Source: a virus
Taxonomy: Duplodnaviria > Caudoviricetes
Direction: 5' to 3' (one strand)
IMG/VR virus record: IMGVR_UViG_3300036982_000927
Coordinates: 1 to 64,000 of that record
DNA length: 64,000 nt
In this document: positions 14,001-55,495 of the stretch, piece after piece
Numbering within the stretch: the first letter of the stretch is position 1
Layout: every line of letters begins with the position of its first letter
The notes under the pieces: model-generated
Seen by the model: only the letters and a program-made list of their open reading frames with translations
Told to the model about the DNA's origin: nothing
Database searches by the model: none
Made by a program: the position numbers and the translations under genes

Positions 14001-15075
14001 AGAGCCCAAGGACGCGGCGTTCTGGCGTTCCGAAGCTCAGCGGCTGGGCAAGGAGTTGTCCAAAGCGGAAGCCACAAAGACGGCCACTGAAATGCTGGTG
14101 GAAGAAGCCGCCAGGTTGGCCCCTACCTCTTACTCTCCGGCGCCTGCACTGCCTGAACACCCCCCGAAAGGAGCGGGCAGCCCCCAGTCGGCGGTCCTCA
14201 TGTTTTCCGATTGCCACGTGGGCCAAGTGGTCACCGGCGAGCAGACATTGGGGCTCGGGAACTACAATTTCGAGATTTTCCTTCGTCGGCTCGCGCGGTT
14301 GGAACATTCCGTTTTCAGCATCTTGCAGGACCACACCACAACGTCAGTTGACGAGATCGTCGTAGCGGCTCTAGGTGATTTCGTCCACGGGGCGTTAATT
14401 CATTCTGTCGAAGCCGGACAGGTGACTACGGTATTTGAACAGGTGTTTAGCGCCAGTCATGTCATTGCCCAGTTTCTTCGCAACTTAAGTCAACTGGCCC
14501 CGGTGCGCGTTCACGCCGCCGCAGGAAATCATGGGCGGTTTCAAAACCAACACCGTATGCCGGCCAACAATCGTTTTTCTAATTTCGATTCGTTTGTGCT
14601 GGCGCATATTCAGGCGTTGTTGCGGGATTGCCCCCGGGTCGTAGTAAATCTCGACAAACAGCCGTTTGCTCGTTTCGACGTGCAGGGTTTCAAATTTCTT
14701 ATGGGTCACGGCGACAACCTTCGGGGTGGAGACCGCAATCTCGGAATACCAAATCACGCCATTGGCCGCACTACTACCGTGCATTCGCAACTCGCGTTCC
14801 GTAGCGGCAACCCGCTTCCTCACTATTTTCTATTCGGCCACTTGCATAGACCAATTCAAATTCCGACGACGATGGGTTCCGTGTATATAAATGGCGGATT
14901 TCCGGGAATAGATGGGTTCGCGCTTATGGAAGCCTTCAACAGTTCATTTCCGTCGCAGCGATTCTTCCTTGTTCACCCTCGCTTCGGGGTCAGCGCGAGC
15001 TATGAGTTGCGCCTAGACTTGGGGGACGCGATTCCGCACCAATACACCCTGCCCGAAAATTTCTGTTGCAAGTAG
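13807..15075 (+). CDS. Calcineurin-like metallophosphoesterase with N-terminal GcrA-like HTH
   Basis: SDCHVG, GDFVHG, GNHGR, GHGD, GHLH motifs; N-terminal WTPELVNRLLELRRAGKSAIQIA. Confidence 0.85.
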   Translation: MNSRTNWTPELVNRLLELRRAGKSAIQIAESLSVGVYTVQNKLARIGTPERLAAALTPEQAAQTEEPKDAAFWRSEAQRLGKELSKAEATKTATEMLVEEAARLAPTSYSPAPALPEHPPKGAGSPQSAVLMFSDCHVGQVVTGEQTLGLGNYNFEIFLRRLARLEHSVFSILQDHTTTSVDEIVVAALGDFVHGALIHSVEAGQVTTVFEQVFSASHVIAQFLRNLSQLAPVRVHAAAGNHGRFQNQHRMPANNRFSNFDSFVLAHIQALLRDCPRVVVNLDKQPFARFDVQGFKFLMGHGDNLRGGDRNLGIPNHAIGRTTTVHSQLAFRSGNPLPHYFLFGHLHRPIQIPTTMGSVYINGGFPGIDGFALMEAFNSSFPSQRFFLVHPRFGVSASYELRLDLGDAIPHQYTLPENFCCK

Positions 15076-15224: not shown

Positions 15225-15241
15225 AACTTTCAAAGTCGGCC

Positions 15242-15269
15242 TTGACTTTTGACTGGACTGTGGCACCTT
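15242..15269 (+). promoter_or_regulatory. Promoter of the structured-RNA operon
   Basis: TTGACT-16-CACCTT with TG extension; predicted +1 coincides with G15276, the 5' end of the first RNA. Confidence 0.55.
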
Positions 15270-15275
15270 ACTTTT

Positions 15276-15381
15276 GCCAGGATGGGATTCCGATGGGGTT
15301 TTGCCCTGCTGTCTGACGCTGAACAAATAGGCGAGCGGTAGGTGCCCACCGGGGCGGGTTTAACTTCCGCCACTGGCACCA
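15276..15381 (+). ncRNA. tRNA-like RNA A (106 nt, bulged acceptor stem, long variable arm, 3' ACCA)
   Basis: GCCAG(GA)TG pairs with CACTGGC; T-arm GCGGG-TTTAACT-TCCGC; V-arm CGGT...ACCG; ends ACCA. Confidence 0.55.
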
Positions 15382-15388
15382 GATTTTT

Positions 15389-15464
15389 CGGGAAAGTCGT
15401 CTAATATCAAGACGCCCAAGAGACGTTTTGGGAAATGCGTGGTGAAAATCCCGCCGCCCGACCA
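15389..15464 (+). ncRNA. Degenerate tRNA-like RNA B (76 nt, 3' ACCA)
   Basis: D-arm CGTC/GACG, anticodon-like arm CCCAA/TTGGG with 8-nt loop, T-loop TGAAAAT, only 4 acceptor pairs. Confidence 0.55.
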
Positions 15465-15469
15465 GATTT

Positions 15470-15539
15470 CCGCGACACCTGCGGGCGACCTAGGCCAACG
15501 TGAAGTGGTGTGACCTGCGGGGCGAGAGCGCCCTGCACA
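15470..15539 (+). ncRNA. Structured RNA C of unknown class
   Basis: ACACC/GGTGT helix and a 9-bp TGCGGGGCG-AGAG-CGCCCTGCA hairpin, flanked by the same ATTT spacers as the neighbouring RNAs. Confidence 0.35.
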
Positions 15540-15545
15540 ATTTTT

Positions 15546-15622
15546 CGGGGTGTAATGTCAGCAGCCAGACGGCCCGGCCTGGAACCGGGAGGTCGTAGGT
15601 GCAAGTCCTACCACCCCGACCA
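15546..15622 (+). tRNA. tRNA-Pro(TGG), non-canonical
   Basis: 7 bp acceptor CGGGGTG/CACCCCG, anticodon arm CCCGG-ccTGGaa-CCGGG, T-arm GTAGG-TGCAAGT-CCTAC, encoded ACCA. Confidence 0.85.
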
Positions 15623-15625
15623 ATT

Positions 15626-15699
15626 TCGGCCCGGCGTGCCTTAACATAACAGCCGACCCGCCACCAACGGCGGACCTGGGTGGGAACCCCGGGGGCCGA
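15626..15699 (+). ncRNA. tRNA-like RNA E (74 nt cloverleaf, no CCA)
   Basis: Acceptor TCGGCCC/GGGCCGA, arm CCGCC-ACCAAC-GGCGG, T-arm CTGGG-TGGGAAC-CCCGG abutting the acceptor strand. Confidence 0.55.
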
Positions 15700-15717
15700 T
15701 TATCCTCAAAAAAGAAT

Positions 15718-15745
15718 TTGACGTTTAAACAACTTGTGCGACATT
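15718..15745 (+). promoter_or_regulatory. Repeated leaderless promoter, copy 1
   Basis: TTGACGTTTAAACAACTTGTGCGACATT, ATG 6 nt downstream. Confidence 0.8.
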
Positions 15746-15751
15746 AAGACC

Positions 15752-15940
15752 ATGAACAAAATCGAATTCATAAAGGCCCTTAAAAAGGTTGGTCCCGTGT
15801 TTGTATGGGTCAATCTCTATGGGGCCGACGGGGAGTATGTGCAGGCAAACAAAACGCATCTTCTCGAACTTGCAGAAAACTCGCCAGAGGATTCACGTTT
15901 TGAAGCGGTCTTGCGGGCTGGGGGCCTTCACATTAACTAA
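15752..15940 (+). CDS. Hypothetical protein (early-type)
   Basis: ATG directly after promoter copy 1. Confidence 0.7.
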   Translation: MNKIEFIKALKKVGPVFVWVNLYGADGEYVQANKTHLLELAENSPEDSRFEAVLRAGGLHIN

Positions 15941-15944
15941 AAAT

Positions 15945-15972
15945 TTGACGTTTAAACAACTTGTGCGACATT
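15945..15972 (+). promoter_or_regulatory. Repeated leaderless promoter, copy 2
   Basis: 28 nt identical to copy 1; ATG 6 nt downstream. Confidence 0.8.
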
Positions 15973-15978
15973 AAAGCC

Positions 15979-16776
15979 ATGAACACGAAATTCAAATTGG
16001 CGGATTGGGAAGACAACGGCATCAACGATAGTTACTTTTACGGCGTGTATTTTGATACCGCCGACGGGAAGTTGCACAAGGTCAGCCTGGGTGCGACCGC
16101 CTACGGGGGCGGTATCGGCTTTGACTCGGACTTTGTTGAACCCACGCCCGAAGTGCTCGAATTGGCCCGCCTGGAACTAGCCAAGAGCATCTTCGCCACT
16201 CTGCGCAAGGCTGAGGACTTCGACGTGCTGACGCCGGAGCCGCGCAACGTGAAAAAGGGCCGCACGTTCCGGTTGTTGGCCCCTCACACGTTTTACGTGA
16301 AGGAAGACGGCCCGTGCCCAAAGTGCGAGGGCACCGGCAAATGGACCAACCCCTATAGCGCCACCGACAAACGCCCGTGCTTTGCTTGTAAAGGCACTGG
16401 CGAGGTCGTCGGCAAGGGCGCTTTCAAGAAGGACGAGAACGGCAAGCGGGTCAAGGTTACCCTGCCGTCGGGAACCGTGCTCACGGCGCTTTTTGACCGA
16501 GTGAACTTCTTCGGAACGGAATACGCCCGGGGTTACAATCACCCAAGCCGATTTAACACCTCCGTCACGTTCAAACACGGTGACGCCCTGATTCGCGTGC
16601 CTCTCGAAAAGCTTCGCCAGGATTGCGAGCCTGCGAGCGATGAATACCTGCGCGACCGGGCCGATGAACTGAGTTACGGGCACCAATACGGCGCGCTGTT
16701 CGGCTGCAAGGCGTGGCTCAGCAACAACTGGGCGGCGAACCTCGCCAAGGCCATTGGAAAGGATTCCCGCCCATGA
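15979..16776 (+). CDS. Hypothetical protein with DnaJ-type zinc finger
   Basis: CPKCEGTG and CFACKGTG (two CxxCxGxG repeats). Confidence 0.75.
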   Translation: MNTKFKLADWEDNGINDSYFYGVYFDTADGKLHKVSLGATAYGGGIGFDSDFVEPTPEVLELARLELAKSIFATLRKAEDFDVLTPEPRNVKKGRTFRLLAPHTFYVKEDGPCPKCEGTGKWTNPYSATDKRPCFACKGTGEVVGKGAFKKDENGKRVKVTLPSGTVLTALFDRVNFFGTEYARGYNHPSRFNTSVTFKHGDALIRVPLEKLRQDCEPASDEYLRDRADELSYGHQYGALFGCKAWLSNNWAANLAKAIGKDSRP

Positions 16777-17000
16777 AAATCCGAACACCGTCAGACCGCC
16801 AGGAGTTCAACGTCGTCTGGCAGGGCCGGCACTATCGGCTAGCCAGCCTGCGGGAGCACGTCCGGGCTAAAGATTACCCGGCGGGCTCGCACTATTTACT
16901 TCTGTTCTGGATAGCCAGTCCCGTGCCACACTGGCCCCCAAGGGCGAAGTTTTTTTGTCCCCACACCCCGGACAAACAGACGCCACTACTTGACGTTTAA
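16773..17000 (+). CDS. Hypothetical protein
   Basis: ATGA overlap with the upstream stop. Confidence 0.5.
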   Translation: MKIRTPSDRQEFNVVWQGRHYRLASLREHVRAKDYPAGSHYLLLFWIASPVPHWPPRAKFFCPHTPDKQTPLLDV

Positions 17001-17017
17001 ACAATCTGTGCGATATT
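16990..17017 (+). promoter_or_regulatory. Repeated leaderless promoter, copy 3
   Basis: TTGACGTTTAAACAATCTGTGCGATATT, ATG 6 nt downstream. Confidence 0.8.
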
Positions 17018-17023
17018 AAAGCC

Positions 17024-17266
17024 ATGAACGAAGAACTCGCTAGAAAAATTGAAGAGGGGATGAAACCGCTGGAGTGTGTGGCCTCCGTTAGGCCCGGCTA
17101 CCTCCGCGTTTGGAACTGCTATTGTGGCTCCATCATGGGCGCCTACAACAAGAAACTTGACGCGGTGTGCGCCGCCCTCGGGTGCAAGTGGACTCGCGAA
17201 CGAACCTATGGCAACGGAATGATTCAGGCGTCTGACTGGGAAGATCGGGTCACCTTTAAAGCCTAA
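17024..17266 (+). CDS. Hypothetical protein
   Basis: ATG directly after promoter copy 3. Confidence 0.7.
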   Translation: MNEELARKIEEGMKPLECVASVRPGYLRVWNCYCGSIMGAYNKKLDAVCAALGCKWTRERTYGNGMIQASDWEDRVTFKA

Positions 17267-17271
17267 AGCTT

Positions 17272-17508
17272 ATGAAAGTAATCGTGAAATTCAAAAAGGG
17301 TTGGTGGCGGCTGGCTGACGTTCATGGCGATGGCTGGCTTCGGCTGGCTTCCAAGACCTTCGGCCCCATCCGTGGATCGGATGCCTGGGTGTCCTGTGGC
17401 TCCGCCGCAATGGCGGCCCGGCAGAACGGCTTCATTGTGGCCAACCAAGAGCAGGTCCGGGCAATCTGCGAATCGGGAATGACGGCGGAAGAGAAAGGAC
17501 AGATATGA
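17272..17508 (+). CDS. Hypothetical protein
   Basis: 78 aa, in operon. Confidence 0.6.
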   Translation: MKVIVKFKKGWWRLADVHGDGWLRLASKTFGPIRGSDAWVSCGSAAMAARQNGFIVANQEQVRAICESGMTAEEKGQI

Positions 17509-17786
17509 CTGGTATGCAAATTACACCTTGGCAGCCAAACCCGTTCCACAAACCCACGGAAAAGCCAAAACAGACGTTGTCGCCGTGCATGGAAGCGACT
17601 CGAAAAGACTTGGCGTCCCTCGGAAAAATTTTGATTTTCACCCCGATAATCCTTCTAGGACTTTCGGCATGTCTCGGGGTGGGGGTAGCCGTAGTGGGAT
17701 TGGCAGCCTCCTTTTTTGCTCACCCGATCTCTTGGATCGAGTTGCTCCTTGCTATTCTCGTTCTAAAATCCTTCGGTAAACGCTAA
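17505..17786 (+). CDS. Small membrane protein
   Basis: Two hydrophobic segments (ILIFTPIILLGLSACLGVGVAVVGLAASFF; WIELLLAILVL); last + strand gene. Confidence 0.65.
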   Translation: MTGMQITPWQPNPFHKPTEKPKQTLSPCMEATRKDLASLGKILIFTPIILLGLSACLGVGVAVVGLAASFFAHPISWIELLLAILVLKSFGKR

Positions 17787-17792
17787 CGGACT

Positions 17793-18488
17793 TCACAAAA
17801 CTGGCTTCAGTATTTGGTTGAGCAAACGACCTGCCCCGGGCTTCGGTCCACTCGTAGGACTACCCGGCTGCATGTTTTTCATGCGCGCTTGCTGAGCCCG
17901 CATGTCTTTCTCAGCGGAGGGCGGCGGGGCGGAAACGGGACTGGCCGACTGCGGCGGGTTAGGGGTGCCCATCTTGAAGCCCCCGGGCACCTTTCGGCCT
18001 TCCTGCAAGGCGGGGTGATCCTTCGCGCCCTTGCCTGAAATCGCCGCGTTCACCTGATCGAACGGCGGCGCAATCTGCGTGAGTTGCCCGGCCTGATCGG
18101 CGGACTGAATCTCTTCCGGGCTGACGTAGAAACGGTTGAACAGGACCGCCGTGTCGCCGGCTAGCGAACGATATCGGCCCATGCCGGCGGATTCAAGGGC
18201 CGGCAAATTCTGCTGGATTATCTTGGCTTCCGGCTTCTTTTGGAACGTCTCCAAGGGGGCCGAAAGGGCCGCCGGCTGCCCGGCAAGCAGCCCCATCATG
18301 GCGGGAATCTTCAGCAGGTCATCCGATAGCGCGGGGGCCTCTCCGGCTTCGCCTGGGGCAGCCTGGGCTGACGGCAGGGCTTCCTTGAGCGCCTGGGCGT
18401 CTTCCGGCGCGGCAGCGGCTTGGGGGTTTATCGGTTGCACCGCGACGGGCGCGGCGTTCGGTTGGACTAAATCAGATGCAAGTGCCAT
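17793..18488 (-). CDS. Pro/Ala-rich hypothetical protein, probably virion-associated
   Basis: Last gene of the structural operon; start moved to ATG 18488. Confidence 0.7.
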   Translation of the reverse strand: MALASDLVQPNAAPVAVQPINPQAAAAPEDAQALKEALPSAQAAPGEAGEAPALSDDLLKIPAMMGLLAGQPAALSAPLETFQKKPEAKIIQQNLPALESAGMGRYRSLAGDTAVLFNRFYVSPEEIQSADQAGQLTQIAPPFDQVNAAISGKGAKDHPALQEGRKVPGGFKMGTPNPPQSASPVSAPPPSAEKDMRAQQARMKNMQPGSPTSGPKPGAGRLLNQILKPVL

Positions 18489-18519
18489 ACGGGAAAAGTG
18501 CCGGCTTTGCGAAGACTTG

Positions 18520-18699
18520 TCAGTCTTTTTTGGCGGCCCTCGGCTCGACCATTCCCCGGCCTTCGAGAACGGCCATGTGGTCCCGGAATTCTTGCCACCA
18601 CTTCGTCCCCCCGATCTGGGGTTCCACGGCGAGCTTGGCCTGTTTGACAATCTCGGCCTGTTCAGCCGGCGTAAACGAAAGTTCAGATTTCTGGTTCAT
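18520..18699 (-). CDS. 59 aa hypothetical protein (MNQKSELSFTPAEQAEIVKQAKL...)
   Basis: Read by hand; fills the gap between the giant gene and the next gene. Confidence 0.6.
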   Translation of the reverse strand: MNQKSELSFTPAEQAEIVKQAKLAVEPQIGGTKWWQEFRDHMAVLEGRGMVEPRAAKKD

Positions 18700-55419: not shown

Positions 55420-55495
55420 TGGGCGCGGGGGCTGGACTCGAACCAGCGACCTTCGCGTTATGAGCGCGACGCGCTACCAACTGCGCCACCCCGCG
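55420..55495 (-). tRNA. tRNA with CAT anticodon (fMet-like body, identity ambiguous)
   Basis: Canonical cloverleaf CGCGGGG/CCCCGCG, ctCATaa loop, GGTTCGAGTCC T-arm, encoded CCA. Confidence 0.9.

Follow-up and report, generated by a model that had tools for sequence, protein, structure and literature searches.

An array of predicted tRNA-like small RNAs in the genome of an uncultured phage

We analyzed a 64-kb stretch of DNA (the window) from IMG/VR record IMGVR_UViG_3300036982_000927, which is a 74.1-kb genome from an uncultured phage and is rated 100% complete. A gene-free part of the window, at 15276–15699, holds an array of five co-oriented small-RNA units that are separated by U-rich spacers (Table 1). 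The array comprises one apparently remodeled tRNA-Pro, three tRNA look-alikes that seem unable to read codons, and one plain hairpin RNA. Neither the open reading frame (ORF) listing nor the gene map of the window includes a credible ORF in 15225–15733.

Upstream of the array is a rightward replication module, which encodes a helicase, a PD-(D/E)XK nuclease, a family A DNA polymerase, a DUF5906 primase-helicase, a sigma factor, a RuvC-like resolvase, and a metallophosphatase exonuclease (ending at 15075). On the 3' side of the array, small ORFs follow that also point rightward and have a repeated promoter of their own, and then leftward genes headed by a gene for a 3426-aa virion protein.

Table 1. 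Predicted features of the array and its borders, in window coordinates
Feature	Start	End	Strand	Description
Candidate promoter	15242	15275	+	-35 TTGACT (15242-15247); TGTGG (15259-15263); -10 CACCTT (15264-15269); 6 nt; candidate start G15276
Unit 1	15276	15381	+	106 nt; tRNA "top half" ending in ACCA, plus an irregular rod
Unit 2	15388	15464	+	77 nt; cloverleaf-shaped; ends in ACCA; fold z -2.5
Unit 3	15470	15539	+	70 nt; loose 5' part, 9-bp GC hairpin (15516-15537), then a U run
Unit 4	15546	15622	+	77 nt; putative remodeled tRNA-Pro(UGG); encoded CCA; matches Rfam RF00005
Unit 5	15626	15699	+	74 nt; cloverleaf; no encoded CCA; fold z -2.0
Downstream boundary	15718	15745	+	Putative promoter of the next (leaderless) gene, outside the RNA array; exact second copy at 15945-15972

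Structure of the five units

A first-pass annotation, made from the letters alone, described five folded units of which only one was a recognizable tRNA, and our searches agree. Rfam identifies unit 4 alone as a tRNA (RF00005; 46.8 bits, where the gathering score is 29 bits). In a search of 701 nucleotides (nt), units 1, 2, 3, and 5 did not match RF00005 even at E <= 10. With default settings, ARAGORN called 0/5 units, and its transfer-messenger RNA (tmRNA) mode did not call any either. The calls that ARAGORN made at relaxed thresholds or with introns were out of register with the units and were rejected. We also disregarded weak Rfam matches to group II intron D1-D4 (E = 0.37) and to the enterovirus cloverleaf (E = 6.4), as these are chance hits. 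A comparison of the whole stretch to 50,697 phage records with blastn found tRNA-Pro genes only.

Direct reading of the sequence bears out most of what had been noticed about the units: (G/A)ATTT(T) spacers separate them, ACCA ends three of them (units 1, 2, and 4), three have a T-loop that starts with U-G (units 2, 4, and 5), and the lengths of 106, 70, 77, and 74 nt are correct for units 1, 3, 4, and 5. Unit 2 is 77 nt long, not 76. Four units were also said to have acceptor/T-arm geometry. Units 4 and 5 have it in the strict sense, but units 1 and 2 need a mismatch layer or a bulge. The strict pattern (a 7-bp acceptor, a 5-bp T-stem, and a 7-nt U...A loop) has about 8 other occurrences in 128 kb (both strands), and units 4 and 5 place two matches side by side within a 160-nt non-coding stretch. 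It is unlikely that two strict matches would be adjacent by chance.

No unit has the canonical 7-nt anticodon loop with U33. The loop of unit 4 has 7 nt but carries C33, whereas the corresponding loops have 6 nt in unit 5, 4 or 8 nt in unit 2, and 9 nt, at the end of a long rod, in unit 1. The canonical elbow (G18G19 with U55/C56) is not present in units 2, 4, or 5. A 7-nt anticodon loop is thus absent from units 1, 2, and 5, which are probably non-decoding.

Unit 4 belongs to a phage tRNA-Pro(UGG) lineage. It is about 80% identical to the canonical tRNA-Pro(UGG) of T5-like Vibrio phages and shares the acceptor (with C1:G72), A73, the D-stem, the UGG anticodon, A37, the variable loop, and the T-stem with them. 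RNAalifold, run on four sequences, found three compensated pairs. The derived states of unit 4 are C instead of U33, G instead of U55, new bases at positions 32 and 38, and a D-loop that is 2 nt shorter and has lost G18G19; its T-loop is UGCAAGU. The determinants for bacterial ProRS are G72 (in C1:G72), A73, G35, G36, A37, and G15-C48 (PMC9976931), and each of these bases is found at its position when unit 4 is aligned to the Rfam model. It may be a functional, remodeled tRNA-Pro instead of a decoy.

Unit 2 is a diverged duplicate of unit 4. The similarity of the two sequences is significant (z = 5.3; 0/500 shuffles), and they agree in the 5' end, the sequence of the D-arm, and the 3' end. The acceptor of unit 2 is of the C1:G72/A73 type, with only 4–5 pairs and three inner mismatches. 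Its D-arm has 5 bp and no GG, a U bulges from its T-stem, its T-loop is UGAAAAU, and its anticodon arm can be drawn with 7 bp and a 4-nt loop or with 5 bp and an 8-nt loop. The T and anticodon stems are unlike those of unit 4 in sequence yet are still paired, which implies compensatory change after a tandem duplication from unit 4. Also, an exact 10-nt direct repeat (15383–15392 and 15540–15549, covering the spacer and the unit start) precedes units 2 and 4. This repeat is consistent with the origin of unit 2 by tandem duplication of unit 4.

Unit 5 has a perfect 7-bp acceptor, a 5-bp T-stem, and the T-loop UGGGAAC, and this is one of the two strict minihelices. A 5-bp anticodon-like stem carries its 6-nt loop, and a 3-bp D-stem carries a large loop without GG. 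The similarity of unit 5 to unit 4 is not significant. Units 2, 4, and 5 all have the rare combination of C1:G72 and A73 at the acceptor end. The minimum free energy structures of units 2 and 5 are cloverleafs, with a terminal stem that closes three hairpins. These shapes exceed chance: among dinucleotide shuffles, a cloverleaf was obtained in 2/1000 cases for unit 2 and in 0/1000 cases for unit 5.

Unit 1 combines the top half of a tRNA with a rod. Its minihelix has 12 acceptor/T-arm layers (5 bp, a G.A layer, and 6 bp) and the T-loop UUUAACU. There is a 9-nt linker that contains GG, and a 63-nt rod (15290–15352) replaces the D and anticodon arms. In the predicted fold, a terminal stem closes the long rod and the T-arm, and 18/1000 shuffles close at least two branches. 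A mini-ORF in the apical loop of unit 1 was considered and dropped, because the RNA is too small and carries no AlaRS identity. Unit 3 is no tRNA mimic. It has no acceptor/T-arm, its fold is no better than those of shuffles (z = -1.15), and it resembles a terminator.

RNase P favors a U at position -1 and RCCA tails, and U-rich spacers favor cleavage of the RNase E type. We suggest that the whole array would be transcribed as a single precursor and then matured by the host's tRNA machinery. RNase P may act on the units, because a U at -1 (found in every tRNA-shaped unit) and the RCCA 3' ends of three units would suit it. The spacers may be cut at RNase E-type sites, because (G/A)AUUU fits such sites.

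Conservation and variation in related phages

We identified related phages via homologs of the exonuclease and of a downstream 271-aa protein, and we refer to their loci as L005, L006, and so on. The comparisons rest on three independent relatives, with one or two for each of units 1, 4, and 5 and no informative one for units 2 and 3. We scored substitutions on the structure that was predicted from the window's copy, and P is the probability that randomly placed substitutions would keep as many pairs.

The RNAs are more similar across phages than the adjacent genes are, by 15–25 percentage points of identity. In L005 (which is identical in L052-L058; seven samples), a 171-nt block that corresponds to units 4 and 5 is 91.8% identical to the window, while the flanking genes are 66–76% identical. 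Unit 1 is 87.5% identical to its homolog in L006, and the flanking genes are 67–73% identical.

The substitutions preserve pairing. Unit 1 has homologs at L006:1103-1207 and L064:2298-2403 and a structural variant at L005:7371-7474. In the comparison to L006, 14 substitutions break 0 pairs and include double compensations at 18/74, 19/73, and 32/65; random placement would keep that many pairs with P ~ 1e-4. The L064 copy has one further change that preserves a pair, and it has one non-standard pair at the closing position of the T-stem. The apical part of the rod is nearly invariant among the window, L064, and L006. For unit 4, the 5 substitutions in L005 break 0 pairs, with a compensation at 51/65 and one G-C pair changed to G-U (P = 0.05), and all of the derived states (C33, the D-loop without GG, and G55) are kept. 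The copy of unit 5 at L005:7805-7878 has 4 substitutions, which break 0 pairs and change one U.G to C-G (P = 0.17). Together, units 1, 4, and 5 have 23 substitutions relative to L005 or L006, with 0 broken pairs and four double compensations.

We also examined a three-sequence alignment of unit 1. In the predicted structure, 96.9% of cells are paired, as compared to 33–51% in controls with a slid register. A shuffle control for the number of pairs was not significant with three sequences (63/500), and the argument for selection on unit 1 is carried by the slid-register control and by the placement of substitutions.

From these comparisons, units 1, 4, and 5 are very probably functional structured RNAs. 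Since the comparable parts are intact in related phages, they are probably working tRNA mimics. The first-pass annotation preferred selected mimicry to decay and proposed to look for substitutions that break helices in homologous loci. Selection is favored for units 1, 4, and 5, which are more conserved than their flanks and have kept their pairing, but for unit 2 the evidence is only suggestive. As for helix-breaking changes, L005 and L006 have none, and one change in unit 1 of L064 gives a non-standard closing pair in the T-stem.

Another aspect of the comparison to L064 is its mosaic structure. L064 is 100% identical to the window across 15384–18575, and to the left of 15384 the identity is about 87–90%. 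This sharp recombination boundary (as seen against L064:2117-5605) falls between units 1 and 2, within their spacer, and the identical part to its right spans 3.2 kb. L064 also carries an extra endonuclease VII gene (L064:1578-2066) to the left of the boundary. The 100%-identical copy in L064 is the sole homolog of units 2 and 3, and there is no diverged homolog to compare them to.

Many relatives lack the island of RNA units. It is absent from 41 relatives in IMG/VR that were found via the exonuclease gene, from L003/L004, L048, and L050, and from five complete genomes of the group, which have 0–1 tRNA each. Because the array is absent from these more distant relatives and from the complete genomes, it is an accessory module at the variable junction of the two transcription arms. 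Five pattern scans of IMG/VR for further homologs had no match. The sole match of a metagenome scan (L051) lies inside a coding region, and we regard it as chance.

Across the phage group, the D-loop and the T-loop seem to vary together. Units with GG in the D-loop or the linker have U at position 2 of the T-loop; this holds for unit 1 (the copies in the window, L064, and L006) and for the unit at L005:7288-7363. Units without GG have G at this position; these are units 2, 4, and 5, the variant of unit 1 in L005, and a long unit in L059. The long unit in L061 is the one exception. The counts behind this pattern are few, and the units are not independent. On the other hand, U54 and A58 are kept in all of the tRNA-shaped units of the group. 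As these two bases never change, the fold of the T-loop was probably kept while its contacts to the D-loop were dropped.

Finally, a promoter with its +1 at G15276 had been proposed. Its layout (TTGNNN, 11 nt, TGTGG, a hexamer, 6 nt, and G) is shared with the island promoters of three relatives, L005, L006, and L049, but a consensus scan missed it, and the -10 hexamer matches the consensus at just 2/6 positions. L064 has a substitution in the -35 element. A transcription start at G15276 is plausible.

Known RNAs and possible functions

Among the closest precedents are the species 1 and 2 RNAs of phage T4 (rnaC and rnaD) and the stable RNAs from the tRNA region of T5. These range from the size of a tRNA to twice that size, and their genes lie among tRNA genes. 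The RNAs of the rnaC/rnaD type are co-transcribed with tRNAs, are matured with them in a way that depends on RNase P, accumulate stably, and have tRNA-like terminal helices. To our knowledge, their function is still unexplained after 50 years. Our array is similar in that small RNAs with tRNA-like ends lie beside a phage tRNA, although here this is known from sequence alone. Of the traits of the T4 RNAs, only the sequence context (U at -1, RCCA ends, and U-rich spacers) fits. The array has no sequence similarity to these RNAs (the blastn search found tRNA-Pro only), it is made up mostly of mimics with one tRNA, and the elbow is systematically remodeled.

Bacterial and phage YrlA Y RNAs join a tRNA-mimicking module to a long helical stem, and some of them are cut by RNase P and tailed with CCA (Chen et al. 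2014, PMC4201824). Like YrlA, the array is non-coding and joins a tRNA-mimicking module to a long helix, but the topology is reversed: YrlA ends on the long stem that binds Ro, while in the array the ends form the acceptor stem. We rejected an assignment to Y RNA because there is no match to the Y RNAs in Rfam and because a Ro60 gene (TROVE, PF05731) is absent from the 74.1-kb genome, whereas control genomes were positive. We also rejected tmRNA, as neither ARAGORN nor Rfam called one and unit 1 has C-G, not G3:U70, as its third acceptor pair. Allo-tRNA and tRNA-Sec have acceptor/T-stem lengths of 8/4, 9/3, or 8/5 and a long variable arm. Unit 1 has a single 63-nt arm that covariation supports, a minihelix with 5+1+6 layers, no loop of the anticodon type, and no match in the tRNA clan, and this assignment was rejected as well.

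Our favored interpretation is that the array is a set of accessory, tRNA-derived small-RNA genes of a lytic-type phage that take part in a conflict over tRNA, and from the sequence we give this about even chances. A more specific proposal, that the array functions in evading defenses or as a decoy, is more tentative, at somewhat less than an even chance. The first-pass annotation had suggested decoys for anticodon nucleases or for sensors of uncharged tRNA, or substrates for non-ribosomal chemistry, and this is one of several candidate readings. Unit 4 would still be charged by ProRS, as a remodeled tRNA-Pro, and its C33 loop and altered elbow (G55 and no G18G19) would let it escape from host factors that act on the normal tRNA-Pro. 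Units 1, 2, and 5 would be stable, non-decoding mimics of the upper half of tRNA, and they would titrate or occupy host factors that bind tRNA. The most plausible such factors are defense nucleases or modifiers that target tRNA.

Phage tRNAs with changes in the anticodon loop have been proposed or shown to evade the tRNases PrrC, VapC, PARIS, and retrons (PMC10264068, PMC11555353, PMC11464382). Such pairs include the mycobacteriophage C1 tRNAs and VapC, T5 tRNA-Lys and AriB of PARIS, and T5 tRNA-Tyr and PtuAB of retron Ec78 (PMC10264068, PMC11464382, PMC11555353). Like these tRNAs, unit 4 has an intact anticodon and intact identity elements and a changed loop (at 32, 33, and 38). In contrast to them, unit 4 also lacks the canonical elbow (G18G19 and U55), and the units that adjoin it have no anticodon loop, which goes beyond the model of a resistant replacement tRNA. 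We favor the view that the array would extend the published idea of tRNase-resistant phage tRNAs to mimics without an anticodon.

Several observations weigh against this interpretation. No defense system or target has been tied to the array. The combination of C33 and the missing elbow may cripple decoding by unit 4. The cognate codon CCA is the phage's rarest proline codon (13%), so supplying tRNA-Pro is weakly motivated and not obviously needed. The promoter is weak by the consensus scan. The comparative set is tiny, with three independent relatives, and units 2 and 3 lack a diverged homolog. Also, the island is clearly mosaic, and some of the high identity may stem from modules that were exchanged recently.

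A related possibility is that the units are a coordinated set, with tRNA-Pro ancestry, G55, and no elbow, in which one unit would be chargeable and the others have no anticodon. Such a set may have been selected to defeat a host immune or stress factor that reads the elbow and T-loop, or the acceptor of tRNA-Pro, and not the anticodon. We consider this unlikely. If it is true, it would be an undescribed class of tRNA-directed defense and counter-defense. The tRNA elbow is clamped by RNase P, T-box leaders, the ribosomal L1 stalk, and CCA-adding enzymes (PMC4919913).

The main alternative is that the tRNA-like halves are cis-acting scaffolds for processing or stability. They would recruit RNase P, RNase Z/E, and the CCA enzyme, and the active parts would be payload RNAs (the rod of unit 1, unit 3, and the RNAs X, Y, and Z that are described below), which could be small regulatory RNAs or bind proteins, with no relation to the biology of tRNA. 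There are natural and artificial parallels. The t-elements of plant mitochondria are degenerate tRNA-like folds that keep the acceptor/T-arm and act as signals for RNase P and RNase Z (the tRNA punctuation model), and artificial tRNA scaffolds use a tRNA-like fold to stabilize an expressed RNA. The array differs from both in its biological setting, as complete cloverleaf-shaped units stand in tandem and there is no mRNA to process. In L005, L061, and L059, tRNA-like units do flank larger structured RNAs that are not tRNAs. The apical rod is the most conserved part of unit 1, the acceptor/T-arm geometry is constant while the lower halves vary, and the boundaries of modules coincide with spacers; these points favor a scaffold. 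But the four tRNA-shaped units in the window follow one another with hardly any RNA between them to be released. No payload is attached to units 2 and 5, of which unit 5 is nonetheless conserved. The D-like and anticodon-like stems of both units have been kept, although a signal for processing alone would not require them. Overall, we view a scaffold as possible but rather unlikely.

Could the array be the remains of a tRNA cluster (duplicates of tRNA-Pro and others) that is eroding in a hypervariable region, with its conservation due to recent horizontal exchange? Unit 2, with its three acceptor mismatches and bulged T-stem, does look like a degraded duplicate of unit 4. The lack of diverged homologs for units 2 and 3, the absence of the island from the 41 relatives and the five complete genomes, and the recent recombination that is evident from the mosaic structure also fit with decay. 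Against decay, the 23 substitutions in units 1, 4, and 5 leave all pairs intact and include four double compensations, and the RNAs are more conserved than the adjacent genes by 15–25 percentage points. Two phages share the same derived states in unit 4, and shuffles almost never give the cloverleaf folds of units 2 and 5. These results make decay quite unlikely.

It seems very improbable that the units are unconventional decoders, with the 6-nt and 8-nt loops belonging to frameshifting or recoding tRNAs and unit 1 being an adaptor like allo-tRNA or tRNA-Sec. Three units do end in ACCA, and the 8-nt loop that can be drawn for unit 2 is like that of frameshift-suppressor tRNAs. However, units 1, 2, and 5 do not match the tRNA or tRNA-Sec families of Rfam even at E <= 10, and the long arm of unit 1 ends in a 9-nt loop instead of a 7-nt loop of the anticodon type. 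Read with the standard code, the gene map shows long open frames and no sign of recoding. We did not find genes for aminoacyl-tRNA synthetases or other tRNA enzymes, and 20 larger proteins had no tRNA-related Pfam domains. Similarly, the whole genome has no gene for a CCA-adding enzyme, RtcB, or Ro60. That the stretch is not RNA at all, but small protein genes or chance structure in a spacer, is scarcely credible: short ORFs do overlap the array (15230-15379 on the - strand, 15407-15604 on the - strand, and 15510-15644 on the + strand), but these frames are not conserved in L005 or L006, only blocks the size of RNA units are shared, substitutions follow the base pairs, and Rfam supports unit 4.

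Why phages carry tRNAs and adjoining tRNA-like stable RNAs has been a question since T4, and recent work has made tRNA a main battlefield between phage and host. This locus is a compact test case, as unit 4, with all ProRS identity elements but an altered anticodon loop and elbow, lies beside paralogous and unrelated mimics that seem unable to decode and yet are conserved, with compensatory changes. If the mimics are decoys, they would lead to host factors that recognize the elbow or the upper half of tRNA. If they are scaffolds, the engineered tRNA scaffold would have a natural counterpart. The RNA families of unit 1, unit 5, and the further modules in the relatives are absent from Rfam 15.

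Other RNAs and elements in these phages

The islands of three relatives (L005:7031-8030, which is identical in L052-L058; L006:767-1523; and L049:4370-4758) have a well-formed promoter with TTGCAA, 16 nt, TAGATT, and an upstream TG. After this promoter there is a conserved RNA of about 170–200 nt (X), which has no match in Rfam and is absent from the window. A second RNA (Y) is about 230 nt long, with a long terminal helix, and was found at L005:7490-7715, L061:139-366, and L059:2-77. The copies of Y from two phages are 76% identical, and Rfam gives no hit at E <= 1. A third conserved element (Z), of about 75 nt, is at L005:7890-7965, L006:1433-1496, and L061:488-582.

There are additional tRNA-like units as well. 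A second family of mimics, 109 nt long, is found at L061:372-480 and L059:82-190. Each folds into a 6+6-bp acceptor/T minihelix that ends in UCCA, with a small hairpin like a D-arm and a very long arm in the manner of an anticodon arm; the fold z is -4.5 in L061. Their T-loop is canonical in L061 and starts with U-G in L059. In the unit at L005:7288-7363, the acceptor, D, and T arms are canonical, the D arm has GG, and CCA is encoded, and no anticodon can be read from the anticodon loop. ARAGORN lists this unit as tRNA-??? and gives it a 2-base anticodon, and the tRNA model of Rfam does not report it.

The sole canonical tRNA of the phage has the anticodon CAU (69.7 bits; window 55420-55495, - strand). 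It has a paired C1-G72, the discriminator base is C, and the middle of the three G-C pairs in the anticodon stem is flipped. We presume that it derives from an initiator tRNA, by comparison to that of E. coli, yet it lacks the C1xA72 mismatch.

The promoter-like motif at the downstream boundary of the array is 28 nt long and has two exact copies (Table 1), where 0 are expected. It contains GTTTAAAC, and its -10 element lies about 6 nt before an ATG, which implies that the mRNAs are leaderless. Similar copies of the motif precede the homologous genes in L005, L059, and L061.

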